DNA of 64,000 bases from Dudresnaya verticillata (taxonomy: Eukaryota), in assembly GCA_977862235.1 (NCBI GenBank), contig OZ374561.1:2294001-2358000 (forward strand). The letters run 5' to 3'. Below the pieces are notes generated by a model. It had not been told where the DNA came from and searched no databases. It was given only the letters and a program-made list of their open reading frames with translations. Positions 24,163 to 50,230 of the stretch are shown here, in pieces (within the stretch, counting starts at the first letter, position 1; each line of letters opens with the position of its first letter). Position numbers and translations under genes: made by a program.

Positions 24163-24836
24163 CGGCGCTATTAGAAAGTCGTCGATGTACGCCAGCACTC
24201 GAAACCCGTAGGACCGCAACTTGCGTACGAACGGAGCCATGAGCGACACGAACCAAAGAGGGGAACGCGTCCAACCGAACGGCAGAGCGACTCATCTGCA
24301 GTATCTTCCACCATATCGGAAAATGAACCAGTCGCTCATGAGGGGATGCAGACGCAAATGGCGAAAGCCCTTCTCGATATCCATTGTCAAGAAGTGGTTC
24401 CCCTTCTGCACGTTCACCGCAAATTCCGGTAGAGTCTCCATTCGGACAGACCCCTTCGCTCAATACTTCGATTGAAGGGCAAGGTTCACTACGAACCGGC
24501 CCTTTGCTCCTTCCTCCTTCTCTTGCCAGACGGTGAATGCGGAGGATATCACAGCTCCCTTCTCTTTCGCACTCATAGCATGGTCTTTCGACACTTCCTG
24601 GTAGATACCGCTGGAGCAACCCTTCTCCAAATCGGCAGCGGCGAATTCCCGATCCTCCGCTAACTGTGGAATATCCGCCAACTCGACAGCTTGACCCGGT
24701 TGGAACGGATCGAGGGGAGCGTCGAATATTCCAAACTGGATGGCTCGGCATAGGTAATCCGAAGCCCCCAGTTGGCGTCATTCTTCGACACGCGATTGCA
24801 CCGCGCGCCATAGAGGGCGCCTCTTTCCGATGGCGA

Positions 24837-25520
24837 CTAATGTCTATCGGCAGCTCCACCCTTACCTTTTGCCCGCTTCGTTGCGTTACTAGCATTTAGG
24901 GTGGCGACTGCCTTCATCAGCTGGGTAGTCATATGAGACTCAAGTTCACCGAGAGGACCTTCAAGGTCATCAGCTGCCGCGACATCACCACGGCGTTCCA
25001 AAGCGGGAAGAACCATCTTAGCGTATGTAGGGTCCTCTGCCGCTAAGCGATAGAATTCGGTACGTAGCCCCAGTACTCTCAACGTGTATCGTAATGCAAT
25101 AATTGCCCAAACGTCAAAACGGTTTGACTGGTCGACCTTGTCGTCAGCAATACATTCTCGGCGCAGATCGATAGCCGTCTCATGAAACGCATAGCAGTAC
25201 CCAGCTGCATTAACATATTTGGCTTCATATTCGGCTACTACCCGCATGCTCTGATGCCTTTCGAGGGCCTTGCGAGGCGCCCACTCTCGGTGATCGAAGA
25301 AGCCGCCCACGAAGGCTCCAACGGCAGGTCCTGCCTCGTATGGATATCGGCTCAACCCGTATTGGCCATCACGATCTGCCCGTTCGGCGATCTGGCCATA
25401 GGCGCTCATCCATATCGGCTCTATTCCAGCCTCATGGAGTGTCTTTCCCTTGGCGATCATCTTAGCCTTCATGAGCAGCGTGTCAGCTTGTTCTGTACTT
25501 GATGTAGACGGAGAATCCAT
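24837..25520 (-). CDS. DIRS ORF1 (gag-like), 227 aa
   Basis: Open ORF between terminal repeat and RT; positional assignment only. Confidence 0.6.
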   Translation of the reverse strand: MDSPSTSSTEQADTLLMKAKMIAKGKTLHEAGIEPIWMSAYGQIAERADRDGQYGLSRYPYEAGPAVGAFVGGFFDHREWAPRKALERHQSMRVVAEYEAKYVNAAGYCYAFHETAIDLRRECIADDKVDQSNRFDVWAIIALRYTLRVLGLRTEFYRLAAEDPTYAKMVLPALERRGDVAAADDLEGPLGELESHMTTQLMKAVATLNASNATKRAKGKGGAADRH

Positions 25521-25620
25521 AGCGATCTTGATTCCTGAACTGCAGTCTTCTGCAGTCCTTGGTCTTGTCCTTTTGACCAGCTAGAAATGTGCCTACCGCC
25601 AGTCGTTCTGGGGACTCTCG

Positions 25621-25811
25621 AAAGAGAGAGGCATGCCCAGATTTCTCCGGGGGCATAGCGTCGACCACTCTTATGACGAAGCTGCATCCAAGAAAAGCGC
25701 GCCTTTTCCCGGAAATTTGACACGTACGCATCGTGTAGCATCCTCTTACAGGATCGCCCTCGCTATTCATTGAGTACGTTTCCTGTGTATAAACGAGTCT
25801 ACACATCACGA
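25621..25811. repeat. Direct repeat copy at 5' end of DIRS/PAT element
   Basis: Matches 12538-12729. Confidence 0.92.
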
Positions 25812-25824
25812 CAAATGTATTTTT

Positions 25825-27040
25825 TGTAGTGCTATACAATCTTTCCTGCTATGACTAAAGCTACATCCTATGACTTATGACTTACGAAGCCGGCATACGT
25901 TTGTATCTAGGCATCACGTAAGCCGCATGCACTCCGCAACGCACAGCAACCCCACACGGTCTCGAAACCTATCCTGTCGGGGCGACATGTGGGACGCTGC
26001 GACGCTATACCGACTGCGGTGTTGCCAATGATGATAAAGAAAGAAAGGTAAATGCCATCTCGACGTTGACACTGCCATCCGTGCCATCCGCCTGTCGGCG
26101 CCAACCATGCCATCCGCCTGTACCAACTGTGGAAGAATGAGCCGCGGCAGAAGTGCTGGCGCACTGTAAGTCCTGTGTGCGCATCAAGGTGTAAGACGTG
26201 CACTCGCATCAAGCTGTAAGGCGCGCACAAGCGCAGTGCGCTGTAAGGAGGATGGGCCCCGCTGGCGTCCCTGCTGGCACCAAATTTGATGGCGAATTGC
26301 CATTGGGTAATTTATTGTGGCCGCTCACGCGGCCCGACGCGGTACTACCACTCATCCGTATTTCTAACTGACAACAGTATTATTAGAATAATAATTACAG
26401 CGAGAATAGCTTAGATTAGCTCATAGGAGGTATGAGCATTTCCGGCTCTGTTATACTTAATAGGCCCCTGAGTAGCAGGGGCCTCCTGATTAGAACACCA
26501 CGGTGGGTTTGGGTCTTTTTCCCTTTTCTGGAATTCACGGACTCACCGTACCTTTTGCCCCTTTCAGGCGCTCTACGAGCCTATTCTCCGCGCGACGGAA
26601 GCTCTGCGCGAGCTGGGTAGCGCCACCTTTCCCTTTTTCCCTTTTTCCTAGGCTTTGTGCCCTTTTCCCAAGTCTCTACCAACACCCCTTTTCCCCCCGA
26701 GCTACCGAAGCTAGTGTTGGCCATAGGACAGGTGTCCTGGTGGTTTCCGTTCTACCTGGCCCCGTGGCCATTCTACTACACCAACTCTGCCATCCGCCTG
26801 TCGGTGTCAACTCGGTGGCAGCGCAGCTATGCCATCTGCGACCGGAGTCACGGTCACGATCACGTTACTGACATTTACCCCCAGCATTACAGCTTCCTTT
26901 CTATTTCTACCCCTGGCAACCCCGCGCCCTTTTTCCCGCCCTAGCGGCTTCTACAGTTTCCCAATAGAAGAATCTGCGGAGACCGCCACGGTCCGTACGG
27001 AAGGGCGCGGGGCCGCCACGTCCTTACAGATAGCATTACA
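25825..27040 (+). repeat. LTR-like segment, right boundary uncertain
   Basis: Starts TGTAGTGCTA, candidate end TAGCATTACA; clustered TGTAAG motifs, AT-rich core and pyrimidine-rich U5-like part as in the other LTRs; no TSD found. Confidence 0.45.
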
Positions 27041-28396
27041 GAAACATTTTGGCCAATAAGATTGCTTGTATGCATGTGTGTGCTGCGTCGTCGCCGCCGT
27101 CGCCGCGCCTTCCGTGCCGGCACACGAAGACCCACCCACGGGCGCACGCCACGGGCGAACGCACATTCACCCGCACGCGCGTGGGCAGGCGCGCCGCCAC
27201 GAGACCCTCCAAGCGGCGCGGGCCCTGCGTCCGCCACGGCGCCGGCAGAGGTACTGTAATGCCATTGCCAGCGGATGCCAGAGGCACCGTCACGGTCACC
27301 CACTACCATGACGACCTCTACAACATGGCATGACGTCAGACATATTGCCATTAATGGCTGTCGTCACCAGCGCCGTATCGACACGGTGCCAAACATGCCG
27401 TTACGGTCACCTAACCAATGACCTGCCCCTATTTCAGTGTAATAAAAGGCCTTACTGCTATTTCTGGCGCCATTTGTCCGGCATGAATTTAAGGTAGTAA
27501 ATCACCGACGCAAGACATATCCTGTCTGGGAAAGTGGCCAGGCTGTTCCCACCCTGCGTGCACAAAGGTATATCCCACCGCCCAGCTGCTGCCCGTACCT
27601 CCTAGCACCACTGTAGTGAAGTGAGCTTCGGCATTCGAAACGATGGAAATGCGTATAGTGTGGCCTGAACCGTTGCGGGATGTGTGCACGTGTACCCGTG
27701 TCGGTTTTGGGTGCATTGTTGTGTGCTGGCGTACATTGCTGTGCAGTAGTGAAGCGCACCAACCGAAGCGGAGTATTTGTAGTATTTATTCTTTATTTTT
27801 AGTGAGTCTGTGTACAGTGTGTAGAGTAGCGCGCCAGCCAATGAGAACGCTGCGCATGTCCGTGTCGGAGATTGGGACCAGCAGGGCCGATTCCACCACA
27901 GGACCAGACCACTAGGGTCTGGCCCCCACGGACCGGACCGCTCGGTACCACCCTGACTTGTATATCAGGGCGGCCCCGCAGCGGATCCTAAGGTAAACGG
28001 GTAAGCAACCTTAGTCCAATCCTTTACGGTGTTCCCCGCGCCGAGCCCGTTGCGGTCTACCACCACCACCGTTACGGAGTCCTTCCCGGTACTTGTACCA
28101 CCCCCTTCTCTGTTGCTTCCCAATATCTGTCTCGGTTAGCCGCTCGCTGTTCTCCCATTTCGGTGCGAACTGCTCTACCACCCCGTGGAGGTAGTGTTGC
28201 TCTCGTCCGTCAAGGAAAGTCAGGCCAGCTGTCCGTCTCGGAGTTCGTGGGTTTTCACTACACCACAACCACGAAACCCACGTACCCTACACTCGCCCAT
28301 AGATATCTGTGCCACAACCGCCACCTCCATCTCCGTACCGCAGCGTCCATCCTTTCACAAGCCCGACTCCCAACACGCCTACACCGCCCACGTCTC

Positions 28397-28565
28397 TCAA
28401 GCCGCGCAAGTCGCGCAAGCCGATCTAGTTCCAGACTCCCCAGACTCCAAGCAACTCGACCAGGCCCCGTAAGCCTCCGCAAGCCCCGCAAGCCCCACAA
28501 GCCTCGCAAGCGTCCGTAAGCCTCTCAAGTCCCTGAATCCCCTAAAGTCGTTCAACGCTCTCAAG
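28397..28565. repeat. Degenerate 9-bp minisatellite (CAAGCCCCG-like)
   Basis: GCAAGCCCC-GCAAGCCCC-ACAAGCCTC-GCAAGCGTC array. Confidence 0.75.
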
Positions 28566-28717
28566 TAACGTGAAATTCAGAAGCTGCAAAAGACCCCAAG
28601 CCCGCCGAACATCACAAGACTCCTGGGCAGTCCCACACTACCTCTTGCAGAGCGCCTTCGCAGGCGCTCTCATTTCAGTTAGGGCCTCTCGAATACTTCA
28701 ACTTGTAGCGTCATCCT

Positions 28718-31090
28718 ATGTCGCAAGACATATATGTCTCGAAGGCTACGAATTTGCCTGAGATGAAAAGCAGCAGCACAGGCGATCAGCCGATGCAGGT
28801 TGCGGTGCGACACGTTGGAAGAGCACGTTCCGTCTCTCCAATTACCCACGCAGTTCGTACAATTGAGCACGTGCCGAACTTTGACAAGATCATCCGTCCG
28901 GTTAGCTAGTTCCGAATGTTGGGCTATACTGCATCTATGTGCAAACAAGGTTTCAAGTTTGACGAGCCGATTGTCTTCAGCGAGCCCATCTTCGAATGCG
29001 ATGGGCACCGCGTATTTCTGCCCGAGTACGCTCTGTGCGGGAACCACCGCACAGGGTCAGCTCGTGATGCTGGGCTGCATATTTTATACGGTCACATCAT
29101 CCGGAGGAAGCAAGTTATTGATGTGTACTACAGCATCAAGGCACTAGAAGGAGTGCTGGAGGGACGAGCTGAGGAGAAGAGTGTCGTCGTGGATCGGCTG
29201 TATAGGTCAATTCACTTCTATGTGATTGTGACCAACACGCAACAGGCCTCTCCAACACCTTACTCGGCTTTACAGCAGGCTGTTGTTGTCTGTACGATTG
29301 TTCGAAGCCACCCGTTGGTCTCCAAAGGGAAGACGAAGGACAAAAAAATCTACGGCGGGGCGTTGTTTCTTCGAGAGCGCTTGTTCGCGAATGCGTTTGA
29401 AGCCCACGATCGTAATCACTTCCTTTTGTGCACAACGTACCATCCTCGCCATCTGAACAGGATTCCACAAGGTTGCTACGCGCTAATCGAGACGCATGTC
29501 AAGGAGGAAGACCCTGTTATGGGCAGTAGAACGAACATCCTAGATGTTCTACTGTACTGGGAATCTATCTCCCGCATCCCGAAGTTTGAGGATACATACA
29601 TTTCATATGCCTCGGACATGCCTGTGTCTGACATGCGTACTATTATCCGGTAATGTTGCAAGGCGATTCGTACGTGCAATCACAACTTCAAGAATGGCGT
29701 TGTATTTCCTGCGCCGTTCGGCACTGCCCATTTCAACGCTGCCAAGAACGGCAAACTGGAGGAGTGGTTTGCAGGGACGGACAAATCGCTTCGCGGCGTG
29801 CTGGCCAAACGGATGACGGATATGCAGATTCGCGAGCAGCACGCTGGGAAGAAGCCGAAGAGCAGGGATTCCGAAGACGAAGAACCCGGCGATGAGGTGA
29901 GGATGAAGAGGAAGGCTCGAGCGTTTAAAGCAGCCCAGACACGCGCAAGAAACAAGAAGAAGCGCGAGGAGCTTGCTCTGGCATCCAGAAAGAAGAAACG
30001 TAGGAGGGAGAATGAGAAGAAGGCTGAAGTTGAGAAGGAAAAGACGAAGAAGAGCAAGGTTTCAAAAAGCCCTGCAACGGCGAAGCTGAACAAGAGGAAG
30101 ACGGATGTGGCTGACTCCGAGGAAGATGCTCCAGTAGTCTTCCACGGTGTAATTGATCTCACACTTTCCGACTACGAGGAGTCCGCAATCGTTCCCGTCG
30201 AGAGAACTACCCCCGTTGAAGTGAAGCAGGAGCCGACTGACGACAGTTTGGCTCAGAAGGGCCCTTCTGTCGCCGCCGACACTCAAGGCCCCGAAGCTAC
30301 AGCGGCAAGCAAAAAGAATGTCGGGCAAGACATATATGTATCGGAGGGCCATAACATGCAGGAGTCTCAGAGGGGCGATGAGACCCAAGACATAGATGTC
30401 TTAGCGGGCCACTATCAAGGACCACAGAAGAAGAGTGGAGCGCAAGACATACATGTCTTGGCAGGTCAGAAAGGTTCAGCCAAGGGAGCTGAGAGACCAG
30501 ACACCGCTCTTGACTTCGGGAAAGCACTTGACTCCACCGCTCGTGAGAACAGAGCTGGAGGCAACAAGATTTCTGAACTCCGGGATGCGCCACCCGTTGA
30601 TCCCCGCGATAAAGTGATAGCCGACCTTCGTCGCCAGGTAAGCGCACTTACGGCGAAGGGGAATCCCAGTATCAACGTCGCTTCGAGTGAGTATTGTGCT
30701 CCAGTGTTGGATACAGTTGGAGGTTCACGAGATGAAATGTTCGAGAAGAGGATACAACTAGAAGTGGAGAAGCGCGTAGCGGAGATGCGAACGAAAGGGC
30801 TTTTAAGTGAGGCTCTAGCACCGTTTGGAACTGCCGCTATCAAGAAAAGTGAGGCCGAACCCATATCATGCTTACAAGCGGAGAAGAACCAGATGGAATC
30901 TGAATTCAAGAAGATGAAACAGTTGTTCGAAAAGAGAAATAAGGAACTGGCTGCTGCGAAGAACCGTCTAGCACAAACCGTTCCCAGTGCCATTGCTCCA
31001 CCGCGAACGAGACGAAGTACTAGACGAACTGCGGGGACTGCAGATACTGCAGTTACTGCAGGCATTGATGTATCGGAAGTTCCAGTGTAG
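28718..31090 (+). pseudogene. Orphan gene (~790 codons), globular N-half, Lys-rich/coiled-coil C-half
   Basis: ORFs 28718-28909, 28916-29653 and 29798-31090 are all in one frame, separated by single stops (28907 TAG, 29651 TAA). Confidence 0.7.
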
Positions 31091-31385
31091 TCATTTTCAA
31101 GGGAGCAACTTATCGAGCTGCAGAATCGTATCTCGAGTACACTAGGAATGCTGTAGTTAGCCGGTGATCGATTTTCTCAAAGACATTTTATCTCATTGCT
31201 TGGGACATGTCACAACATGCAAATACCACAACTCCACCATAAACTCTTTTGAGCTATAGCTAGCTCGATTCAACACATTTGTTCAACTTGTCTTCAAGAC
31301 AGATATGTCTTGAACACAACCATATACCTCAGTGATTCCACACAATTGCAAACAAATCCAAGAGCCCATGTAATGCATTCTGGAT

Positions 31386-33213
31386 TCAATCGGAATCCGG
31401 CTCGAATTCCGCTGCGGCAGAGTAGTCCTTGTCATCTGCATTGGAGGACTCTTCTTCCTGAGCAGCTTCCTCGAAACGCTCATCCAAATTTTCAGGCACT
31501 CCGGCGAGAATACGCTCACGGGCAGCACGGATTTCTTGCGCATATTCCTTCCTCGTCCCCGGTATGAAAGCTAGGCCTCTCAAATGATGCTCTGCAGCAT
31601 CTGATCCCGGAGCACTTCGATTTGGCGCAGCCCGACCGGAATCTTGTGGACGGACTGCACTTGTCCCACACGTTTCCGATTCCTGCACATCCTTCTCCTG
31701 ACGGTCACCCTCAACCCCCTCTTCGACTGACACCGCGCCCACACCTACACCTCTCCCACCTTCCTCCTGCTTCTTTTTCTTCTTCTCCGGAACGAAAACC
31801 GTGTCAGAGCCGCTTTAATCATCAGGACTATCCGATTTCGTGGCTTTAATAGATTTAGTGCTCCGACCTTTCTGACAAGCGGGTCTAGCACGATCCACAG
31901 TTCCGGTCTTGGCGCGAGACATATATGTCTTGACGGGGATTTCTTCGACTGGTTCATCTTCATCAGTGGTGAAGTTCATATCCAGGGATTCACCTGACGC
32001 GACACTCCACCCAGATGATGGGGAAGTGTTCGCTATACCGCACCAGAAAGATGGCTGGTGAATTTAGAGGATGTCTTGCTTCTGCAGCCCTCTGGCGACT
32101 GAGGATGAAATATCTACATCTTCGAAGCAGCCCGGTGTGACCCTCATAGAATCTAGGATAGTGCGTGGCACATTGAGATGGGCTTCTTTCTCCAGACGCC
32201 CCATCTCTTCCATGTATATTTCACGTGCCGCGTCGTATTCTGAAGCATATTCCGAGATGGGGGTATCGGTATAGCAGCAACGGGACAAACGATGTCCTCC
32301 CGAGGGTTGTAGTGGTGCGACTCCGGAAACGTTGCAGCGGCCTTGTCCACATCGAAAAGACACCAGGAAACGAGACGACTGGAAGCCACGCGAATGTCGT
32401 GTGGAAGGTCAACCGTGAAGGGACGGTCGCCCTGTACGATGAGAATATCGCCGGGGTACAGTCTTCTTTTTCATCCCCCTCACGGTAGAATGCGGTATTA
32501 CTCATTGCGAGACGGTCTGGCAGGTTCTCGCCACTAATAGTGATGACAGAGTCTGCAGACGAAGCAGTCACCATGTCAAAACGTAGATGTGGACTAAAAA
32601 GGACATTCTTTCCCTGCTCCGGCACGGATGACGGGATCATCAACTCGAGTTCCGAACCGAGGTAGAGGAAGCACCGAAACGACGGCGGGTATTCACAATC
32701 TTTGAAGAAAGAGTTACAAAACCCTCCCGTAGACGGACTGAGAAGTTCGGGTGGTGATGCGTAGAAAGCTCGCCCAAGCCCTGCACGCATGAACTCGGCA
32801 ACTGTTGCCATCACATTTGTGAGGTGCATCTTCTTGTCGAAGAACTTTTCTTTCACGAGCCAAGCTACGTCCGGTTTAACGTTAAACGGGCTGAACATGG
32901 TTTTCTTCTCGGCGCAATCAGGACCGGCCTCATAATCCTTCCTCCACATCCCCACAGTGCGCCTCGAGCGCAGATCCCCGTCTCTGACTGAAAACGTTTC
33001 CGGCTCACACCAGAGAAGATACTTGGAGCCTTCCGCGCGGAGGGCGTTGAACCATACTTGATGATTTCCCTTGGCATACAACGACACCTTTCGGCGCCGG
33101 GCCGAGGGAGCGTTAACGGACCGAAGTGAAGTTCCTAGCACGCCGTAGTCGCGGCTTCGACTCTTCGTCGAGGCGTTCGCGTCCGACGGTTTCATCACCG
33201 TATCCACCTCCAT
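31386..33213 (-). pseudogene. Orphan gene, frameshifted, acidic C-terminus
   Basis: 330-aa ORF 32221-33213 continues through shifted frames (32153-32389, 32064-32363) into acidic ORF 31386-31742. Confidence 0.5.
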
Positions 33214-33782
33214 GCTCGTATGTGTAGGTCTTGTGTTCGTCCTTGGACAGCTGGTACGCTAATCTCACATTAGTAGGCGCGTGAGGATGGAGAGGAAAGC
33301 TCGAAAGGGTATGCCGTTGTCAAAACGACTTGCCAGTCGAACGTGGCTTGCGAACCGGGCAATTTGAGGTAGACTCTGGAATCAGGTCCAAGACATAATA
33401 GGTCTTAAACGTTATGATAAAAACTCGCGTTTCAGACGGTCCGGAATTACACTATTTTTAGGACTATGTTTTGCTGCAGTGTACCGTTGGAGCCCAGATG
33501 GAATACGAATTTAGATTGGATTACTGCTGTTCGACGGGCCCGTGGTCCGGGCCTACGGGCCCGTCGTACAGCTGTCCCGTGGCCCCTGCCCAAGGGCCCG
33601 TCGTACAGCAAGCCTGTGGAGCTGGCTCGAAGTGAAGTGATTTCAACGCTGCGGTTGCAAACGCATGGCCTCGACCCGGCTCAATCTCCAGACTGCTTAG
33701 AGAGATCAACCGATAAGACCGCGGCCGAACCGCGCGGTTCCAACGACGACCCGCGGAAGCCCGCAGATCTACATGCGAGTGT

Positions 33783-35232
33783 GTGCACGCGCGCTTTCTC
33801 ACACGTGTGACACCTGCGAACGACTTCGGCACAAGCATGGAGGACAAGGATGAGGGTATGTTTGGATACCTCCAACGTTCCATGTATTTGGAGCAGGAGA
33901 AGTGGGGAGATGAGGAGATGTTTGAGGAGGGGGAGGGGCAGCTACCACGGAACGGGAGAGGAGGGCTGCTGCGCGACGTGCTCTCAGAGAGGCGTAGAGT
34001 TCCGCTGCAGCTGTTCGCGGAAGCCGGAACACTACAAGGCTCACGACAAAGAGGGCGCAGGATACTACAGGGGTTGAGACATATATGTCTCCCCCACTTC
34101 CCCGGACTGAGCTCGCGCGCGCCCTCAGACAGTACTCGCCATACTACAGTGGTTGAGACATACATGTCTCCCACGCTTCCGCGGACTGAGCGCGCGAGCG
34201 TGCGCCCAGACAACACTCGCCGTACTGGAGGTGTGGTTGCGACAGTAGCTCACCGACGAAGAGATCCTGTTCTCAACCCGCTGAATGCAGAAGAGAAGAA
34301 GAAGCTAGTCGACTGCGAAGACGATGAGCTGCAGGTTGGGAGAATCACCGTTGAGCCTGGCATGCTTCGCAACTTGCGAGGCTCGTTTGACCCAGAAGCT
34401 TGGATGAATGACGACATCATGGATAGCTTCGCTACGAGGTTAAACGAGAGGTCCAAGCGTCGACGTGACAAGTACGGTTTCGGAAAGAAAGTTCACATCA
34501 CTTCAGTGCACGTGAAGAGCTTCGTACATCGTGAGAAGACTAGAGCGACCGACGGCTGGATGTTTCTACAGCATGCGTTATTTTCTTTAGAAGAACTTGA
34601 CGTCATAATGTTTCCGTATAACCAGAACAACGAGCACTGGGTTCTAGCTGTATTTGACATGAAAGCGAAAACAATTCTGCTGCACAATCCTTATCACTGC
34701 GAAAAACCGGACGTTGTCCCATTACAGAATGTTTCTTTCCTCCGTATGGGCCGAGAAGACCTCGCTTAAAATCAAGTTCGAGAGCTGGAGTGTTTATCTC
34801 AGCAAGGCTTTTCCCAAGCAGAAGGATGGTGGGTCCTGTGGGGTTTTCGTCATGTGGGTGATGGAATTCATGGAGCGCGGGGCCGTACCGTCTTTCGTTC
34901 AAGCCGACATAGAATTGCTCAGGCAGAAGACAGAATTGTTGCTAAGGGGTCACGATGTTCTCCCTCTTCAATGGCAGGGATCGGCTTTGGGCAGCGAGCG
35001 TGCTTCTGGTGTTTTAATTAATGTTCAGGACAAGGTTGCTAAAGCAATCAGGGCGGAAATCGCTAGTATTGCGAAGAAAGAAAAAATTGTGAAGTCAAGG
35101 GGTAAGAAGGCTTCTGCTCCAGCGAGAAATGCGCAAGGGTCCGATAGGGTCGCTGTGTCTGCCGGTCCGACTTATGTCGACAGCCCAAGGCCAGCGCAAA
35201 ATGAGAAGACAGCAAAGGGATCTCCCCTATAA
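33783..35232 (+). pseudogene. Ulp1/SENP (peptidase C48) SUMO protease, frameshifted near 34720-34760
   Basis: WMNDDIMDSF, MFPYNQNNEHWVLAVFD, then PKQKDGGSCGVFV (His-Asp-Gln-Cys catalytic set). Confidence 0.9.
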
Positions 35233-35528
35233 GAAACGGCTCCTCTCTCGCAGATGGAATCGAGTCAGGGTCGTCCAGCTGTAACTCCCGCGCGAGTCTG
35301 CACGATTTCCAGCCTACCGTAAGCAAGAAGAGTCCTGTCGAAGGGGAAAGCGAGGAAGCTCTAAGGCTCTTAACGGCTCTCCAGCCCATTAAGCGGATCG
35401 AGAAAGGCCGCTCTCACGAAAGCGGCCTTGCGCGGCCGCGTACTCGTGAGGGTGGGCAAAGCACTGCGACGGTATCACCTGCTACTGTCGCACCTGTCAC
35501 TGTCACAGTATCCTTCGACGCGTCTTCG

Positions 35529-36257
35529 TTGCTCCGACGAGCGGTGCGAAACAAGAAGGTGAATCTAGGCCGAAAGACCCACACGTCGCGTAAAGCGAGG
35601 GACAAGAAATTCGAGACGAGTGGAATAGGGCTTTCGCGCTCCGCCATAGAAGACATTGTTATCCCGCGGAGGCATAGGACGTGCAATATTCCTCACACAC
35701 GAACAGTGCAGGAAAAGGAGAAAGACGAGAGAATATCTGATTTAGAACTTCCCGTTCTATCAGACTTGCCCCCGCTAGATGAACCTGTCTCGATGGTCGG
35801 CGTTGTGGACAGGAAGGCTCCTACGGATGTCCGGAAGCCTGTAGACATATCTGTCTCCTATCCCAAGCCCGGCCATCGACAAGAAGTTGAGATGGGCAAA
35901 GAAGATTCCGAGAAGGTCGCCGTGAAGGGTCGACCCTTTCTCGATCGAGACATACCTGTCTCCCCAACCACTGCTGGGGATGAAGATGCGGGCGAAGATG
36001 GTGAGGCGCCCAAGGGAGGTGCTGAGTGCGCCGTGAAGGGTCGAGACATATCTGTATCCCCAACCAAGTCTGGGGATGAAGATGCGGGCGAAGATTTGGA
36101 TGTACGGAAAGGGATGCAGGCGCCCAAGGGAGATGCCGGGAAGTTCATGCACGAGGCGCGCCCACCCGCGGGTGACAGATCAGTGTCGTCTGCAGATGGA
36201 GAAGATTCAGGGCAGGATAAGTACGTTGAAGTGTTCAGGCCAACTCCTGAGTCGTGA
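35529..36257 (+). CDS. Low-complexity repetitive ORF, probably the C-terminal tail of the Ulp1 gene
   Basis: Repeats DI(S/P)VSPT..GDEDAGED; same strand, directly downstream of Ulp1. Confidence 0.4.
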   Translation: MLRRAVRNKKVNLGRKTHTSRKARDKKFETSGIGLSRSAIEDIVIPRRHRTCNIPHTRTVQEKEKDERISDLELPVLSDLPPLDEPVSMVGVVDRKAPTDVRKPVDISVSYPKPGHRQEVEMGKEDSEKVAVKGRPFLDRDIPVSPTTAGDEDAGEDGEAPKGGAECAVKGRDISVSPTKSGDEDAGEDLDVRKGMQAPKGDAGKFMHEARPPAGDRSVSSADGEDSGQDKYVEVFRPTPES

Positions 36258-37268
36258 GGGAGGCGTAACCCTCGCAAACCACGCAGAGTAGGAAGTGCTC
36301 AGCAGGTTGCTTCTGTTACAGATGGACCGCGTATCGACAACAGAAGCGATAACAGCGAAGCGTCCCTGTGACCGAAGCGCAACAGGAAGAAACCAAAACG
36401 CTATCAGCATTGATAATATTCATATTGCAAGAGAGCGTACGTCCGAACGTGGTGTCGTGGACGTACTCTTGCTGCTAAACTTTGTAAAGTGGGCTGTATG
36501 TGAATAGTGTCGTGTGTGTCGTGTGAAGATCGTGTCGTGATGTTTTGTGTGGGCGAACAGGCGAAGCTATATATAGCCTGTTCGCTGCAACATGATACTA
36601 ATGTGAAGGAGAATGTGCGTGCGCTGTAACTATGGCACACCTTGTGTGGCTGTAGCTCTCATGGCACACTTCCATAAGAGTGCATCTGTTGTCGTTGTGC
36701 AGTGCACTCTGTTACACATGTGGGAATGAACACGTGCACACGAGGACATAGTACAGCATCTCTTGATATGGTATGACTTTCTCCTAACATGTTGTAAAAG
36801 AATGGCAATTATTCTATCAGTTGTTGATCAGTTCCGTTAGTCTAATTGTATTTAACTACATATTTCGCTCAATTGAAGTACAATTCCACACGGACAATAG
36901 GAGTGATTGTGGTGCCGAGAGCAGCTGCTACCGAGCTAGCTCGCCAGCAATTTCTTAAGCTTCAGTGAGTCAATTATTACGTGCTTGAGGGTCATCGTGA
37001 CGTGACGCGCAGGGTTCTGCTCTCGGTACAACACGATCGATGGATAGACACAGACTAGAGTCTATCGATAGAGCGTGTTAAACACTACTTATCACTACGT
37101 CGTCTTCTTTCTCTTCGATTCGTTCGGTTCCAGTGTGTACTCACACTGTACATTACGTTGTAAGACTTTCAGCCGAAGCCGATTACGCGTTCTTGAGATA
37201 CTAGGAAAAACAGCCTCACGCGAAACAATTCTTGACGGAAAATGCTCTCGGAATCTTTCCAGGTACGT

Positions 37269-38755
37269 CTACAGATACCCCTTCGCAGAAGCACATATTC
37301 TGATGAGGTTTCGACTCAGACCCGAAACGCATAGTCCATCCAATGAAGTGCAGAGAGAAAGTGCGGTATATACCATGCCAGGTGGTTTCCAAAAACGCGT
37401 CCTGGAAAAGTCGACCGATACCCACTGCAGTGTCATTCCTTGACACTTGTGAATAGCTACTGCATATCCAGGTATAAAAGCGAACTGTGTGCGGTATGCC
37501 AGTACTTGCGCCCCTCGATCCCTTACTGAAAATTCTTGTGGCCACATCTCGAAGTGTTGTGTGGAAGATCCCAGCAATTTTATCCGATACTTCGTACGAC
37601 ACCAGCAGAAGTACCAGGAACAACCGCTGTTATCTATACGATCGTTCCCGGTAGGTGGGAGCCTGTTCTCCTGGTCAGAATGACGTGAGAACCCACTTTC
37701 ATCCTCACTTCATCTGGGGCAGCATTCCTCAATCGTCTTGATGTAGTTTCATCACACCCCAGGACATATCTGTCTCGGGCTGAGTGAGTAAATGACTTCG
37801 ACGGGATCTTATCCAAAATATCGTTGCTATATCGAGACACATCTGTCTTATACAAAAAAAGTTCTGTTCGGTGAATGAATGGCTGATCACGGGACGCAAC
37901 TCGACTCCGCCCAGTACCATTGACGGTTTTGATATCATCATCCGTACAACTACCGTCGTGAAAACGCTGAAGCATCTCGAAGAATTCCTTGTCACCCTTT
38001 TGTCTGTGATTCGTATAGAGAATCCAAATGACACCCGTACCGAAGCCTCCAAACGTGAGAAACCACGGACTGGATAGATGAACAGGCAGATTTTCATGCG
38101 GTAACGAATCGTGCTGTGTAATGGGGCCCAGCTGAAGTGGATCCCCGCATAGCACGACTTGTCGGCCGCCAAACGGAAGTGCTACAGAGGCCTTCGAACT
38201 CCCGTAGTGACGAAGGACTGAATCTACAGCCTCTAGAACCGCGGAAGGAATCACAAAAACCTCATCGATAATAAGTACCTTAATTTGCCTGATCTCTTCC
38301 ACTCTTCTCTTAGATTTCTTCACTTCCTGCAGCAATACTTCCTTGCTGGCGGCCCAATTATCAGAAATCCCAAACATACTGCTGAGGCTCTGACCGCACA
38401 AAGTGGTAGCGGTTGCGTTGCTGTACCCACAAGCGGCAACAACCGGAAAATCTCCAAAACGTTCACGGGCGAACCTTAGCATGTACTCCAGCAGGAACGA
38501 CTTCCCGCTCCCAGCACCCCCCATCAACGCAATTGACTTCCCTGCTCTGAATAGGTGGTAAATGCACTCCTGAACGGGGTCAAGGCAAGGAAGCTCAGTA
38601 TCAGCACTTGGAGGGCAGGTACATGCTTCCACCAAAATGGTCAATAATTCTCGAAGCTTCGACGCGTCGGTGCAAGACGCAGGGAGCACAAGCCGAAGAC
38701 AGAATTGTGTCACAGGAATCCGTTGAAGGAAGCACAGATATCCCGAGGCTTCCAC
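37269..38755 (-). pseudogene. Pif1-family SF1B DNA helicase, disrupted near 37580-37640
   Basis: GGAGSGKS, IIDEV, PFGGRQVVLCGDPLQLGPI, NHRQKGD, KVGSHVIL, AIHKCQGMTL, GMVYTALS. Confidence 0.93.
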
Positions 38756-39571
38756 TGCTACCGGCGAGAAATATCACTGCCGTCGGAGAGTACGGGATCC
38801 AGGAGATCCAAAATGCGTTCGGGCACTCCGAACGCGATCCGGTAGAATACACGGAGCCCAACGAAGGCAGGGGCACATGCGCGGCGGAGGAAACCGGGTT
38901 AGGGAGCACGGGAGATGTGTTTGGGAGAAGGTGGGGGGTACCGGCCGGACTGTGCCCGGGGATACCTAGCTGTGAAAGAAAAAGATGGCAGTCGCGCCAT
39001 TACGATGCGTAAACGTTTGCTTTTCGGCGAGATGTCGGCTGAATTGGCGGGAGAACCACGGATGAAAAGACACGCTATCAGTTACATGACCTCCATGGAA
39101 GGGCCTTTCTAACGCAACGTGGACATATGTGCATATGCACGTGCGACCATATCCACAACTCGGGAGACTAATTTTAATCTCAACTCTCGAGAGTACGGTA
39201 AGGATGCTTAACGTTTCAGCTCTTCCAATCAAAAATTCGAGATCAAGACATGTATGTCTCGGCTGGTGCCACTTGTCGAAATATTGTCTGAGAAAATAGC
39301 CTTCTGCTACATGACTTGGAAACTGGGCCAGAGACACAGCAATGCATCATATATCGAGAGTCTGAGGCATTTGCGGGAGATGTCGTAGCCGTTACATATG
39401 CCCCCATGGCGCTTTCTACAATTTCTAGAACTTGATCATGAATGATGGCGCGGCTGCGCGCATCCTACGATATATTGTATACCAGGCTAGTCCTACAGCT
39501 ATCAGAACGTGGATATCCCGTCGTCCCCACTTCAACAAAGTCCCCATTGAAACTACTACAACAGGACACAT

Positions 39572-42500
39572 ATGTCTAGCGCTACCGGTTGGTCCTCAGA
39601 GGATATCCATCGCATACCATCCACACTTCTACAGGAACAGAATTGGTCTAGTACTCCGCTCCACGATAGCTCCATTCATCATTCAGTGAAACACACAGAA
39701 ACTACGTCAATTGATGAAAGTACTGTACGTGCTATTCAAAACGTTTTGCTCTTGGAGAGCGCTCATGCCGGCGACCCGAGTGAACAATATTTCCAGGGAA
39801 TTGCCCTGCCGCACACGTCAGAACTCACCTACGGCGTAGTGATTCAGCAACGGCCAGGAACGAAGCATGGTCACGGTCGACGTCCCTTCGCGGGCGATCC
39901 AAAGGAGCGAAGGAAACGAATACCAAGGCTTTTGTCAACATTGATATACAGAACAGTGGTAGATCTCTTCGGGGGAAGCATCAATTCAGTACTGAATGAG
40001 ATGTCTGGCATTATTACAGATGTATTGAACCAAGAACAAGACCGGATCTCCCCTACTTGGAGACAGGATATGTCTCAATGTCTCACGGAGGAGAAGTCTC
40101 TTAAACAGAATGAGAGGAATTGGTTTCATGTACTCAGCCGGTGCCCACTTCTATGCATCTCCACACGGCTACCTTACTCACAAGTAGGAATAGCCGGAAC
40201 GAGATCCATGGATCGACACGTCGTCAGCACTTGGCTTGGGGTAGACCATGTCTTTTACTGCAGCTGTGTCGGTATCACTGAGTTTCGCATCAATGGCGCA
40301 AAACCCCAAAGTGAAGACAACTCTTGCATTCACGTGCAGGGTTTCCGACTGGCCTTAGCAAAACTCGCAAAATGCTGCGGTCTTTCCCTTGACAAGTCTG
40401 CACAAATTCTCGCTGAGCTGTATTCACGAACTTGTCAGAACGACATCGAGACATATATGTCTGGGTGTCCAGATATACAAGATATGTTTGACAAGAGGGC
40501 GCGTCTCGTCTCAATGAAAGTTCAATTCCCCTCCGATGAATTTCTTCACTTTATCCCGGTGCGAGCTCTCAAGAAAACGTTACATGTCTGTGCATTCTGT
40601 GACACTACGTTTTGTGGCGGCTGCATGCACACACGTGTTGTTCAGACACTCCGGAAAGAAGAAATGTGCCCGGAAGATGACGAAGAGAATCCCATTACTC
40701 CATCACCAACTGTCCACACCACGGACCTCCCACCGTCAATCTCCAAGCTTCCAGTTTCCCCCGTTAATTGCAAGAGATCCATAGCAGTAGACCTTTCGAT
40801 TGGGTTGCTTGCAAGACAAGGGAACCCATTCCTATCTCTTGCCCCCAGAAATTGTCAACGCTGCCAATCATCAAGGAAAGAGAATTCTCGAAAATTATGG
40901 ACTGACGGAGTGCTCATGAGCACAATCGGTCCTTGTGCACTACATGTCGAAGAGTTTCAATGCTCTCGTGAGAACTGCTATGCAGTGATAGTGGCTGACG
41001 GTCGGGAACACTGTATTCTCCTAGAGTCCGTTACCTCTGCTGCCACACACGCTCTGTTACGCCGAGAAATCACTGGGGTTGTGGTTGGAAATGGAACGAT
41101 CAGTAGCCGCCTCAAGCACTATCACTCTCAGGCCACGGGTGTCATCACCTGCGGTTTCCTGCCTTCCACCGTACCTTGCCGCTCAACGCAAAAACTACAA
41201 GACCTATGCTCTTGGATGATCAGGTTGATGACTTTGCGTCCTGATCCATGTCTCTTTGAGTGCGAGACATGCACATCAGACACAGACGATATCCCCGCGC
41301 TTTGCATCGACGGCATTCAGTTGGGATATGTAAAAAGCAAGCAAGTACCGCTGAAGAATATTCATCAAGCCTGGGAGCCAATACCGCTATCGAATTCATC
41401 TAGGAACGGAACAACTCATCACCCACTAACCGGATTCTTCAGACGTGACGGTACATTTAAGACAATTCTCTCAGGAATCAAGGGGTCCACTGTGGACTGT
41501 ACATCCAAAACCGTTAAGGATGTCACGATGTGCATTCGGTTATTGTCAGAGATGGATTTCTTGGGCACTTTCCTCATGGAATCGATATGCGGTGCAACCC
41601 CTAACGAATACAGTAACGACATCGGGGAGAGTAGCTATATCCGCTCTATACGCAAATTGACGTTGTCCATATTTGACAAGGATGTCATCATGTGCAGGAT
41701 TTTTAAAACCTCTTCACGGATTCGTATCACAAACCTCCGTGGATTATATGAGAAGAAATGGAGCTAATCTATCTGGAAACATACCATCTCTGACTCTATG
41801 CCTGCAGCGGGAGCTTGCCTACCTGGAACGTCTACAACGCTCTGTTAGAAAAACAGGTGTAGCATGGGGTAAATTGGGTAGATAATTCTTCAGAGTGGAA
41901 CAAGGATGTCTGTCACGATCTCTTGAAAATGTACTCCATGTTTATTCAAGGACCCCTCTGTCATTTCATGCGAAGAACAGACATTATGTCTTTGGAAGCT
42001 CTAGGACATATATGTCTCCGCGGTGAACATTCCTCACTGCGCGATGCAATTGGAAATCCTGGCACCTTGCGTGCAGGAGAGGACGAAACAAGTATTCTAC
42101 AAACGTCCAGACTCATTCAAGCGGCCCTCCTCACTGTCTGCGAGATTGAGGCTCTGAAAAATGCCTTGGCCGGAAAGACTATGCGTACAGCCTTGGGTTC
42201 CGTCTTTATTTCCAGTGCTAGATGCGTCACCAGATTTTACATGTACTACCATGACCCCGTGTGTTCTAGTTCCGCGGTGTTATATGCAGAAATGTGGAAG
42301 TCCCAAGACAGAAATATCTTGCTCTCGAAAATGTCAGAGAGGTTCCCCCGTCAAACGGACTCGGCTGCAACTGACCTGGAATTGGCTTTGAAAACAGGGC
42401 AGTACTTTCCAGGACGAATGCAAGTGCGACCACTTCCCTTCAACAAGGATGAGATCACATCTCCTAGGGCAGAATCTGTTGGTCCATGTGCAAAAGACTA

Positions 42501-43074
42501 CTTACAACAGCAACAAAGCTATACCCCAGGAGCAATGACAATATCATGCGCTTGCACCAGCCCAATTACATTTGGTTCTAAGATTCTATACAGAAACGAA
42601 GGTCCAAAGATTGTTCCGGATATGCTCATGTCAAGATTTGCTAAGATCCCGAGATTCGTCATATATGACTTTGCCTGCGGCTTGTACAGCAGTGCTGTCA
42701 ATTCCCTCTGGTGGGCCCTCGAAGAAACTAGAATCCTTAGCGACAAGTTTCATGTCGGTAATCACAAGGCCTGCTCACCGTCTTTTAACCCGAATCACTA
42801 CACAGAACTGGATTCCAAGAACACTGTTTGTCACGAGCAGAGAAACAGTTCCATCCAGCAAATCTCGCCTTCTCTCCGGAACTGTGGTCACGTCCTCTAT
42901 ACTTCCTTACTAGCGTATCACACAATTGTTGCTAACATCAAAGCAAAAGCACGAGCATCCCAGAGATATGCTGAACGAGAAGCTCTTATGTCCGAACATG
43001 ATTTAGAATGGGCGTACTTCCACTGCTTGGACATCACCTGCCTCTGTTGCGCTCCCGTAGATAATGACAAGTAA
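39572..43074 (+). pseudogene. KDZ-superfamily transposase with SWIM-like finger and CxC cysteine clusters (two frames: 39572-41767, 41923-43074)
   Basis: YCSC...SCIH; CQRC...FQC...C..ADG CxC-like domain; FECETC..ALCIDGIQLG; PRFVIYDFACGL; SDKFHVGNHKAC; NTVCHEQRN; break may be a frameshift or an intron. Confidence 0.8.
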
Positions 43075-43374
43075 TTACTTGACCCCTAAACGTTAAAGTT
43101 GGTATGACTATGCCATAGAACTGAAATTAATAATAAGCTCATTAGTATTCAGGTGTTAATCCATTGCAATTGATCAATCAACCGGATGAAATTGCACCAA
43201 GCATATTCCTACTGACATAGCTAGAGTTCTGTTGAGCAGGGCTTATGCCACAAATAATTATTTTTAGCAGAACGTCGTAGGACGTTCTGCACGGAGCAGG
43301 ACATATATGTCCTGAGCACAAGTATATACATTGAATAGGACATATATGTCTACAAGTCGTACTTGCCCACTATG

Positions 43375-43560
43375 TATTTCACACGCATATACACGTACAC
43401 ACACACATATACATATATATATGGTATATATGTTTGTGTATGTGCATATGTGCAGATATATATCTGATATGTATAAGATATATATCTGCACATTCTCCAC
43501 ATACATGCGCATATGTGCGATTGCACCAAACATATTCATTCTGACATATGTAAAGCTCAG
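43375..43560. repeat. TA/CA-rich low-complexity, partly self-complementary tract
   Basis: ACACACATATACATATATATATGGTATATATGTTTGTGT etc. Confidence 0.8.
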
Positions 43561-43806
43561 GTGAGCATTCTGACATAGTATGTCAGAATGCCGGACGTTC
43601 ATGAACGTACTGCAGCACGGGCCTAGGGCCCCAGGGTTACTAGTAATGAAGCTTCACTTTGTGTACCGGAGTTTATACCGGAGCAGGACATATATGTCTT
43701 GATCAGAAGTATATTAACATGGTTCGAACAAAGCAGATCTGCTCAGGCTCGCCCAAGGACCAAACGTTGGCATTCGTTTATTGAAAGTAGTAAAGCAGTG
43801 TGCATT

Positions 43807-46612
43807 CTACCTACTACGGCCGTTGAGAAGAAGATTTGCATCCAATGCATCTGTACTACCGACGACAGGGGCCCTTCCTATAAAAGAAGGGCTTTCAGTA
43901 CCTGTCAAAGCCGGCGGAACCTGAGATACTCCCTCGCGCTCTGGCAGAGTGGGTGGAGAACGTGATGACTTCAGGGGTAGTCTAGTATTCTCAGATGAAG
44001 CGGGTTCTACAATGTCCATATGGTTTCCGTTCCACAAAAATGCCGCGCTTCCCTCCAAGTCCGACATGAACTTGGGGAACTGAAGGAAATGTCTCTCCCT
44101 TAGTCTCTGTGTGTATTCCCCAGCACTATACCAGTCTCGAAACGGATATAGAATAATATTAGCATCCAGCTTTTCTCCATTCCTCATTGTGGTTCCGTCG
44201 TTCTCTTCACAAGTTCTGGCTTTGAAATCACAAAGCTCAACAATATAATGTATGTTAACATTGCTGTCGTGTACTCCTCGATCTGGAACAAGAGCTTTTG
44301 TCATGTTAACACGCTGTCGGACGAGAATTGCGGTGCCAAGACCATCGGGTAACTCGTAGTCAATATTGACCCGTCCGATGGCGTCCTTCTTCCAGATAAG
44401 CGGTAGTTTCAGAAGTTGAGTTCGATCCAGGCCCGAAAACTTCGTACCTTCAAAAGCTTTAGTTCCCGTACTGTATGAAGACGCACGACTATACAGTCCT
44501 CGGGAACGCGTTCTCCTAGTACGTAGGAAGTGAAAGGGTCAACACTTCCATGACCAACGATGCTGTCCTTGTCATGTGTGCTTCCCAAATATATTTCACA
44601 GAAGGCCTGTGGCTTCTCTCGACAGCGCGGCAGGCACGCCTTTATCCCCCCGCAACTATCGGAGAGGAATGATTTTCTAGCATGTTCGTTCAATATTCGG
44701 CACAAATCAGCATAGTGCGCTTCATTAGAAAGCATGAGGGCCAGCACCGCGATGCATTCTTTCTTTCTATTCTTGCTTGCTTTCTTAATGTGAAGAGAAA
44801 CTTTGAAGTGACCTGTCACTTTGTATGCTTGTCCACGATGTCTTGAAAGATTTATAGCCGGAATGGCGACTACCTTACCTCGCAGTTGGTCTGGTATAAG
44901 TGTCTTGTACCGCATCCCTCCAGTTGTCCTTCCGTCCTGTCTTCTATGCGCTCTTTGCCGGGTGTAAAAAGCGCTTAGAACTTTGCTTGCAACGTGCGCG
45001 TTTACACAATCCAACGTTTTCGGTCTCGTTGATGAACTGTGCTTCGTCTCATAACTTGCGTCAAGAAGATACGAAATACATGAAGCGGTAGCCTCAGCAG
45101 AGAGAGTCATAACCCCTGAATTACCCAAGGGGCCATATTCTGCTGTTCGAACAAGGCATCCTCTTCTCGGAGTATTGTTCCTTGGTAAGACATGTATGTC
45201 TCTGACTCTCTCCTGGATCACTCCATTGTCTCTACCATCTCGAGCAGCTGATGCCGAGACAGTTCTGTCTTGGGCAGTCGGCGTGGGTGCCGAGACAGTT
45301 CCGTCTTGAGCAGACGGTGGCGGCACAATTTCTTCCTCATTGCCTCCGGTACCCCTTGAAGGTTCTATTAGGTGCTCCTGGGAACGCCCAAGTCCTGTGC
45401 GTGACCCGCTGGCCCCGAGAACAGGACCAGGACCAACCGAAATATCGGCCTCAGTGACGGGATGTGTAGACGGTAGCTCAGGTCCCTGTCGTACAAACGT
45501 CGTGCTGAAGACGGAGAACACCTCCGGGCCGTTCGGGAGCCCAGTGGGTAGCCGCTAATAGCGAACTTGGTAGAGCAGGTTGAACACGCCTCGGGCGGAC
45601 TGTAAACACCCAGGGCGAGCGGACAAAGGGGCAAAAAAACCCAAAAGGAAACACGTTAGCAACGGTTAGGAACGTGGAAACACGGATAGGTAGACGCTTA
45701 TGCTTCCGGGCAGCGGTAGGGTGCGCGCTGTCGCGGAAGGGAAGTCTAGACCCAAACTGGCTTGTCGGGGCTCTACTGTTACGTCCTGGACGAGGTACCT
45801 AAGTAATACTATGGAGCCGCGGCGCGGCGGCTGCATGACGTAGTGCGCGGGAACCCGGGAAGCGTGTCGCGTGGAGGTGCGTCTGACACGTCCCGGGACA
45901 ATGCAGCCGCTGTGCACCGGCACGTGCGTCTTACAGAGGCGCGCTCGCACGGTGCTGTAGGCGATCCGGATTCGGATCGAGATTGGCACCGTATTGCAGG
46001 CTCGTTTCCCTTACAGCGGATCCCGATGTCCGATCTGGATGTCGGATCCGGATTCGATCGGGATCCGGGCCAATCTGACAGTCAACTCCCTTACACCTCG
46101 TTAATCCCGATGCATCATCCAGATCGGCCCTTCAGCGTTGCGCCGTACAGTGCATCGGGCGTGCGCGACGCTGGGTTGTGGCACCCGCGCTCCCGTAGAC
46201 CAATCATCGATGACGTGTTCGCGCCAACAGCGAATGAGCCGTTCCAGGTGACCGTCCGTCGGTCGACGAGGTTCTCGGCGCCCATGGCGAGGAAATAAAA
46301 GCTCGGTCCCCAGTGCGCCACAGTCCCCAATGGCTAAAAAGGGAAGTACTTTTCCCGTTGTCCTTGTCACAATCTGTTCGCGCATAAAGTGCAAGAGAGA
46401 CGGCCAAGGTTTGAATCCTTCTGCACGTGGCGCTCGAGGACAGCTGCCAGATGCACTAGGGAGTTCAGTGAGGCAGCAACGAAATCACAGTCTGCATCGT
46501 CAACTTGTGCAAGACTGGTGGCGCATTCCGATATTCCTTCAAACGAGCCCATTTGTGCAACACCAGTTACTATTAATTCCAATGCTGATGAAGGGGACGG
46601 CGGGCAAGGCAA
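43807..46612 (-). pseudogene. Orphan gene interrupted by a solo LTR and frameshifts
   Basis: Removing LTR 45487-46322 and one TSD joins ...KSTSLFSHW|GPELPSTHP; 44409-45521 continues after a frameshift into 43807-44304; 5' end uncertain. Confidence 0.6.
45487..46322 (-). repeat. Solo LTR, divergent relative of the Gypsy A LTR
   Basis: TG...CA ends, TSD GTCCC at 45482-45486 and 46323-46327, reverse-strand similarity to 8524-9425 (TTTACAGTCCGCCC, CTGCTCTACCA). Confidence 0.92.
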
Positions 46613-46993
46613 AGCTGATTAAGGGGACCGTGGGCAAGGCCAAACGAGGGCACGTCTAATAACTGAAGAAGACGGCGATAAATGGAAAGGGAAGCACAAT
46701 TGGATATAATGGCAAGTGCGACATAGGTATACAATTAAAAAACGGAGTAAATTGCAAGTACAATACCACAAGATATTAATAGAATCTGAGTATTATTCAA
46801 GGGTATCAAGTAGCATCTGGAAGCAGATGTTCGTGGCTTTGGACGGTTACGAAGGCTAGATGGGTATTGTTACTGTTAACGGTATCCCAATTATTTTTTG
46901 TCAACGGTAAGCACTCCTTGCACTCCTTTGTTACCGTTAAAAGCATTGATGAGAGAGATTTTGATATTTTCTAAGGCACTGGAGTGACCAGCA

Positions 46994-49786: not shown

Positions 49787-49926
49787 CAAATCATCGCATT
49801 GGAAGCATGTAGTACCGAATATGTTTTAGAGTTTGCATGAAGGTTGAAGACGTACTCCCTTGCCACATAGTGTAGCGTAGCTACAACTTAGGACACTGAG
49901 GCGTCTCTAAATAAATCACACATTTC
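47034..49926 (+). mobile_element. 5'-truncated non-LTR retrotransposon (LINE)
   Basis: TSD GATTGGC at 47027-47033 and 49927-49933; AATAAA near the 3' end; APE-RT ORF. Confidence 0.92.
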
Positions 49927-50048: not shown

Positions 50049-50230
50049 ACAATTCGTGGCAAGGGGACATAACTGTCTGCACTTCCTGCACCTCCCTCGC
50101 CACCGAAAAGCTCATCAGCCCATCAGAATCATACTCGTGGGTTTTGGCATACCGATTTCGGTGCCACTTCGGTGATTTATTCGGCATATATTTACAGTAG
50201 GCAGAAAATACCGAAGTCACCACACAGAAA

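Follow-up and report, generated by a model that had tools for sequence, protein, structure and literature searches.

Giant DNA transposons with KDZ (Kyakuja-Dileera-Zisupton) transposases reach up to 30.3 kb in Ectocarpus and 31.7 kb in Chlamydomonas (Zisupton-3_cRei), and KDZ1/KDZx1 have been reported from Cryptococcus (PMC12477816, PMC9977147, PMC11343200). Among red-algal elements, the DDE transposon Kolobok-1_CCri is described as carrying a RecQ helicase on its opposite strand (PMC9587614), while the 17-19 kb multi-gene Plavaka elements hold the accessory genes PAG1-3, a cassette of ParB-like, methylase-SET and 2OG oxygenase genes of which PAG3 was recognized only by HHpred, and such accessory genes also accompany Zisupton in Bangiophyceae; their inverted-repeat arrays were proposed as self-binding sites (10.1101/2025.02.11.637652). 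A comparable self-recognition is reported for VANDAL elements, whose 8-9 bp, non-palindromic motif, arranged in non-coding tandem repeats, is bound by the element protein VANC (PMC5735166). Here, we analyzed 64,000 nucleotides of Dudresnaya verticillata (GCA_977862235.1, contig OZ374561.1, positions 2,294,001 to 2,358,000; hereafter the window) and describe a group of six damaged genes, comprising a transposase, a Pif1 helicase, a Ulp1 protease and the orphan genes A, B and C. They probably represent one dead KDZ-related DNA transposon of ~19 kb with Pif1 as a stable partner.

The transposase and its linked genes

Two frameshifts, one near 41700 and one near 41865, break up the transposase gene. 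Since intact relatives of 1180-1190 amino acids, to which it is 39-43% identical, span both halves, it represents a single gene with two frameshifts. Searching with its C-terminal half retrieved 894 representatives at E ≤ 0.001 and four long proteins in a set of 5.8 billion. Two relatives provide the connection to KDZ: P0003 (39% identity) matches the Pfam KDZ profile with E 8.2e-5, under the cut-off, and P0004 (E 2.3e-7 to the query) with E 1.1e-9, over the cut-off. Within 46 aligned relatives, Pfam recognized KDZ in four, CxC4 in five and CxC5 in three, and none of these in the window protein; tblastn linked the latter, at E values between 4e-13 and 1e-7, to loci that match CxC4 and/or, weakly, KDZ. 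The D-D-E and DxxH residues are intact, and their columns are nearly invariant in an alignment of 62 rows (D579 is D in 46, with 15 gaps; D1052 in 59; E1108 in 60). The motifs CIDG, YDFAC, DKFHVGNH and EQRN are all present, as are a SWIM-like CxC...CxH pattern at 40259 and CxxC..CxxCxH at 40589. By way of these relatives, sequence comparison indicates that the catalytic core is homologous to that of KDZ transposases.

An RNase H-type DDE fold is predicted on relative P0003, whose AlphaFold model has a predicted local distance difference test (pLDDT) score of 81. In a VIA-align comparison of this model, the top 24 rows, with Z values of 6.0-7.7, consisted entirely of DDE transposases and integrases; these scores are middling but mutually consistent. 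The best match was the ISCth4 transposase (Z 7.7, root-mean-square deviation 3.4, 212 aligned), followed by integrases, TnsB and Hermes; Z values within 1 count as tied.

One metagenome scan for relatives of the transposase yielded 38 loci, and a tree was calculated from 69 catalytic cores, left from 79 after removal of 10 that were near-identical; for this tree, the tree tool flagged long branches near the root. The lineage of the window transposase forms a clade separate from the loci that bear CxC4. A Pif1 gene adjoins the transposase in 14 of the 38 loci, all of them within one 36-row clade (support 95/92) and distributed over three deep sub-lineages, in which Pif1 lies downstream of, convergent with or upstream of transposases 29-54% identical to that of the window. 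As it recurs across this clade, Pif1 is probably not a chance cargo. Ten loci of L001-L024, mostly short contigs, had no Pif1 match.

The closest gene arrangement comes from two contigs, JADWZK010024873.1 (L001) with gene C and the transposase, and JADWZK010058083.1 (L002) with the transposase end, a Pif1 frame and Ulp1. They overlap by 277 bp at 99.6%, and the resulting composite (C, transposase, Pif1, Ulp1) retains the window order Ulp1-Pif1-transposase-C with the orientation of each gene reversed. The gene C relative adjoining the L001 transposase was matched with E values of 1e-14, 2e-8 and 1e-6.

The helicase belongs to the PIF1 class (superfamily 1B) and not to RecQ (superfamily 2). In the window it carries a frameshift near 37640 and an Arg to Leu exchange in motif VI, whereas L002 holds an uninterrupted frame of 507 codons. 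That it stands alone, without HUH/Rep domain, had been stated in the original prediction and holds: only ~75 residues precede Walker A, no Helitron Rep family was matched by Pfam on the 35 window open reading frames (ORFs) searched, and the six frames of 36400-39550 contain no Rep HUH motif, only a solitary YxxKY 5-mer in a frame riddled with stops. L002 Pif1 scores 55 bits against Helraiser, far below its scores with cellular Pif1. The C48 protease postulated beside the transposase was likewise recovered, since Pfam Peptidase_C48 matched in two frames (E 7.8e-4 and 4.4e-7). Its catalytic H, D, Q and C are present, the frameshift lies within the domain near 34700-34760, and a long low-complexity tail belongs to the same gene.

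Further features were seen in the related loci. High-GC marine elements possess long tandem repeats between transposase and Pif1 and, in convergent orientation to Pif1, a conserved orphan gene that Pfam did not match (Table 1). A trypsin-family gene lies directly upstream of the transposase in L008 (1403-3112) and also in L007. L002 contains five copies of a 17-bp non-palindromic repeat (6446-9091).

The dispersed palindrome

The six genes share a short palindrome, as the original prediction had claimed. Allowing ≤2 mismatches, 21 of the 22 window matches to RGACATATATGTCY fall within 28726-45201, compared with a chance expectation of 0.30 and a maximum of two in 100 shuffles. An unbiased scan of spaced palindromes ranked GACA-N4-TGTC first among all tested (21 observed, 0.66 expected). 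A matrix derived from the palindrome sites themselves and applied with a cut-off of ≥12 bits gave 24 sites and none outside the element; 19 are located in the ORFs of all six genes and five are intergenic. Two of them sit at start codons: gene A has one 8 bp past its ATG, and the transposase site covers the start codon. A further match at 50065, which scores 10 bits and borders a Harbinger-like element, was rejected as part of the element. Viral contigs provided neither a double-palindrome match nor a transposase relative nor a close Pif1 relative.

Coding sequences contain 15 palindromes compared with 1.5 in synonymous shuffles (maximum 6, n=500), and these occupy all three reading frames. 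At four conserved-region sites (40449, 42004 and both Pif1 sites), the alignment to relatives lacking the word is gap-free; therefore, these palindromes arose by substitution. ACA/TGT is unchanged in 21 of 21 sites, while centre and flanks vary and base pairing is not kept, the flanking pair being Watson-Crick in only 9 of 21. A binding protein of two-fold symmetry would account for such a pattern more readily than a hairpin. As L001 has four GAC-N8-GTC words directly 3' of gene C, where the window has its palindrome cluster, these two cases give a hint that gene C could be the reader of the palindrome.

The neighbouring families carry palindromes of their own. The gypsy long terminal repeat (LTR) element (1-9425; also 22449-23361 and 45487-46322), in which an additional antisense coding region (~5822-8084) separates pol from the 3' LTR, contains CGCC-N3-GGCG 31 times and CGTC-N3-GACG 22 times; the mixed forms occur only once, suggesting pairing or two separate words. 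Its antisense ORFs hold 20 sites compared with 3.4 under synonymous shuffling, and their proteins had no Pfam, NCBIfam or PHROG match. In a second LTR-type family (17600-19900, 58700-63100), ACGG-N4-CCGT / GGAATTCC palindromes are concentrated in a long non-pol region. The palindromes of both LTR families are largely restricted to their own family and differ from the word of the element.

Layout of the element and its surroundings

The window consists of eukaryotic DNA rich in repeats, among them gypsy LTR elements, a long interspersed nuclear element (LINE) and other elements. From 28718 to ~46600, six coding regions of alternating orientation follow each other (A+, B-, Ulp1+, Pif1-, transposase+, C-; Table 1), all of them damaged by stops, frameshifts or insertion. 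This agrees with the predicted layout of alternating genes, three of them orphans, over ~19 kb. Because two solo LTRs are nested within it, ~1.5 kb of the 27.5-46.6 kb span is foreign. The one in gene C resembles the LTRs at 8523-9425 and 22449-23361 to ~70%. Directly left of the element, a further solo LTR (26128-26780) is flanked by a CCAAC target duplication.

Table 1. Features of the element and of related loci
Feature	Position	Strand	Details
Leftmost stretch, tentatively assigned to the element	27480..27611		5-bp-spacer palindrome variant at 27513
Nested solo LTR	27612..28263		TGTAGTG...CACTACA; CCAC 4-bp duplication, or ACCAC 5-bp if the end is 28267; outside the element proper
Orphan gene A	28718..31090	+	~790 codons; in-frame stops 28907, 29651; 4 palindromes
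Orphan gene B	31386..33258	-	One frameshift near 32300, two stops; 1 palindrome
Ulp1/C48 protease gene	33838..36413	+	Pfam Peptidase_C48; 5 palindromes
Stand-alone Pif1 helicase	37269..38773	-	Pfam PIF1 E 3e-22; 2 palindromes
KDZ-related DDE transposase	39572..43074	+	Relatives, D-D-E residues; 4 palindromes
Cluster of three near-perfect palindromes	43299..43699		3' of transposase and of gene C
Orphan gene C, 3' part	43807..45486	-	Frameshift near 44410-44500; 3 palindromes; relative adjoins L001 transposase
Nested solo LTR inside gene C	45487..46322	-	836 bp; GTCCC target duplication
Orphan gene C, 5' part past solo LTR	46328..46620	-	Frame continues; weak L001 gene C match
Dispersed palindrome (C)(R)RGACA-TATA-TGTCY(Y)(G)	28726..45306		24 sites ≥12 bits
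Marine Pif1-convergent orphan gene	L006 9143-11263, L010 10859-12571, L013 8431-10734		Also L008, L011, L014, L015, L023, L024

In the Pfam profile search, which covered 35 window ORFs, the transposase halves and A, B and C remained unmatched, and the three orphan genes had no NCBIfam or PHROG match either; none of these searches detected ParB, methylase, SET or 2OG domains in them. The C-terminal half of gene A is basic and coiled-coil-like. No homologue of gene B or gene C was found within the length limits of the protein search. Immediately beyond the LTR junction, gene C matches L001 gene C weakly in its 5' part (E 0.014, 680-bp target). For the C-terminal part of window gene C, the predicted model is too poor for use (pLDDT 37.9). 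Two candidate assignments were not sustained: a nuclease-like motif in gene C was dropped because the L001 relative lacks it, and a CACTA TnpA-type C-terminal domain, assigned by eye to the end of gene C and to the marine Pif1-convergent gene, found neither a mutual profile match nor a Pfam match.

Right of the element, at 46990-50050, the window contains an intact-looking LINE ORF (932 codons, endonuclease and reverse transcriptase), flanked by 37-bp inverted arms at 47006 and 50012 and accompanied by a 36-bp hairpin (49927-50027); perhaps the LINE inserted into a small inverted-repeat element. At 50201-51750 follows what we take, by eye, to be a Harbinger-like pair, a Myb/SANT-like gene facing a transposase fragment, for which the single ORF scanned had no Pfam match; it is interrupted by a gypsy element near 52070. 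Left of the element, a tyrosine-recombinase-like ORF recognized by eye (12870-14132, minus strand) and related fragments (24137-25850, minus strand) have a 97% repeat in common (12537-12729 / 25620-25811) and are likely DIRS-type remnants. Next to these fragments lies a TTTAGGGG-type tract (24068-24140), which is similar to a red-algal telomere unit (10.1101/2025.02.11.637652) and would agree with a red alga as the source of the window.

Mechanism, alternative readings and relation to known systems

If the six genes form one element, its life cycle can be sketched. Pif1 helicases function in break-induced and long-tract repair. The DDE transposase would excise and reinsert the element by cut-and-paste, a mode we assume because of the predicted fold of the relative together with the excision and target duplications reported for KDZ elements. 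Pif1 would then aid long-tract repair synthesis at the donor site, by which an element of 15-20 kb gains copies; we consider this the likeliest role of the helicase, at slightly less than even odds, and one that would matter most at such a size. Ulp1 would strip SUMO as a counter-silencing activity, an analogy for which the balance is even. A two-fold symmetric element protein would coat the element via the palindrome and thereby keep it active or join its ends; here we lean slightly toward binding by an element protein, with gene C or the transposase as first candidates. Self-recognition and counter-silencing are inferred by analogy to VANC (PMC5735166) and to PAG3 of red-algal Plavaka. The widest reading, rather doubtful at present, would be an undescribed algal KDZ-related lineage needing its own Pif1 to copy members of 15-20 kb, with private palindromic self-tags, spread through the genes of this element and of the two LTR families and recognized by a protein that the element encodes, as signs of a VANC-like arms race across transposon classes that extends into coding DNA.

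Several observations weigh against one KDZ-related element with a stable helicase partner. The transposase had been predicted as KDZ from its D...EQRN motifs and its SWIM-like and CxC clusters. Motifs and Cys/His patterns are indeed present, but neither half matched Pfam KDZ (PF18758) directly at E ≤ 0.05 or 0.01, nor any Pfam CxC or SWIM profile. For the 41923-43074 protein, the absence of a KDZ profile match, named beforehand as a refutation of the original prediction, holds to the letter, but the profile is reached through P0003 and P0004; for lack of a direct match we file the transposase as KDZ-related and not as a canonical member. Foldseek with the whole 1180-amino-acid P0003 model gave no match at E ≤ 0.001. 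The proposal of a single decayed element finds support for the transposase, Pif1, Ulp1 and gene C, all found together again in L001/L002 of another assembly; for genes A and B, however, no relative adjoins any of the 38 transposase loci, and they are joined to the element by the palindrome alone. For element termini and target duplication, window scans gave chance-level matches only: this applies to terminal inverted repeats of Zisupton/Dileera type with 8-bp duplication, and the one candidate for Kyakuja-type CA..TG ends, which lack inverted repeats and go with a 7-bp duplication, is not separable from noise among 21 chance-level pairs. Further insertions may cover the right end. A Ulp1 relative beside a transposase was found in L002 only. 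Outside the clade, no Pif1 adjoins any of 14 loci, of which L032 alone has flanks of 9-10 kb on both sides; the 14 Pif1 loci reduce to ~six families, most from near-identical marine contigs, and L023 and L024 have no Pif1 between the transposase and the next conserved gene. Window or L002 Pif1 scores 114-138 bits against marine Pif1, similar to the 115-122 bits of L002 Pif1 against solved eukaryotic Pif1, so that these bit scores do not establish a single origin of the transposase-linked Pif1 genes. Finally, relatives have almost no exact copy of the palindrome (0-1 match per locus), no DNA-binding domain was found in A, B or C, and the invariance of the sites is partly circular because the matrix was built from the same sites.

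Within the same element, Pif1 might instead serve a replicative step (copy-out or nick-and-replicate) and not post-excision repair. The best structural match of the P0003 model, ISCth4, points in this direction, its family presumably using a replication-dependent pathway, and the recurrence of Pif1 across the clade fits a replicative step as well. We nevertheless regard this as unlikely, since integrases, TnsB and Hermes rank next within tied Z values, and since excision (Zisupton-3_cRei, PMC9977147) and target duplications of 7-8 bp (PMC12730594) have been reported for KDZ elements. Slightly less probable still is a junction between a core element (Ulp1, Pif1, transposase, C) and an unrelated element of A and B, both sharing the palindrome through one host or element factor. 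Beyond the missing A and B relatives, the nature of the region as a pile of nested elements without recognizable termini speaks for such a junction, but with 6 of 24 sites in A and B the palindrome is equally dense there, it ends at both edges, neighbouring families carry different words, and the alternation of orientation runs on through A and B.

A Helitron remnant or captured host gene without role in transposition would be another origin of Pif1, in keeping with the fixed nested insertions reported as frequent in giant KDZ elements (PMC12477816) and with the Pif1 bit scores given above. We consider it improbable: L002 Pif1 is nearer to cellular Pif1 than to Helraiser and open over its whole frame, no Rep/HUH family or motif lies nearby, the window Pif1 bears the element palindrome, and Pif1 genes accompany widely diverged transposases in three positions/orientations. 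Already disfavoured, and by far the least probable, is that a small inserted element left the palindromes behind as footprints or relics, or that they result from amino-acid composition. Their TA-rich centre and the location of some sites within short local duplications (34062/34141, 35945/36041) would suit this origin, which is opposed by the four gap-free sites, the use of three reading frames and the excess over synonymous shuffling. One dead KDZ-related element with Pif1 as a stable partner thus remains the probable reading.

Copy gain by giant cut-and-paste elements is poorly understood, and a DDE lineage keeping Pif1 bears on this question: its retention across transposases only ~30% identical offers a test case for helicase-assisted donor repair versus replicative transposition. 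In addition, a Pif1 gene inside a repeat need not mean a Helitron. Transposon silencing in algae is little studied, and family-specific coding palindromes provide a handle on element boundaries and recognizing proteins. KDZ or Zisupton together with Pif1 was found in none of the best-ranked full-text literature matches, Repbase and supplements being outside this scope, nor in the portions covered of PMC6431247, PMC8788227, PMC5751038, PMC3706591 and PMC12062965; Repbase entries or the Ectocarpus/Bostrychia supplements may already contain such elements. The words "helicase" and "Ulp1" do not occur in the main text of the Plavaka study (10.1101/2025.02.11.637652).

With described KDZ elements, the window element shares the homologous core, a long transposase, its size, additional genes without known function, nested insertions and the pseudogenisation of the transposase, which also shows N-terminal patterns resembling their Cys/His clusters, as far as reported in PMC12477816, PMC9977147 and PMC11343200. 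In contrast to canonical members, it is too divergent for Pfam KDZ/CxC, carries a separate Pif1 and is pervaded by a palindrome through all coding regions. An association of Ulp1 with Zisupton was reportedly described in Bohne 2012. KolobokH, including Kolobok-1_CCri, is likewise described as a DDE transposon with its own helicase (PMC9587614). In the window, however, this helicase is Pif1 and not RecQ, and the transposase is KDZ-related. AcademH is also said to be a helicase-carrying DDE transposon, from which the window element differs by a helicase that is not RecQ. Helitrons have a Pif1-family helicase in a mobile element in common with it (PMC8788227), whereas the window element lacks a HUH Rep domain or fusion and has a DDE transposase as mobility gene. 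As in Arabidopsis VANDAL/VANC, a family-specific short motif is repeated within the element (PMC5735166); unlike there, the word, known here from sequence alone, is a dispersed 14-18 bp palindrome with 19 of 24 sites in ORFs. Compared with Plavaka, its repeats are dispersed and not tandem, and no PAG domain was detected at the level of Pfam, NCBIfam and PHROG profiles. Giant multi-gene KDZ elements and RecQ-carrying DDE elements are thus already known, while the combination of Pif1 with a KDZ-related transposase is new within the literature covered.

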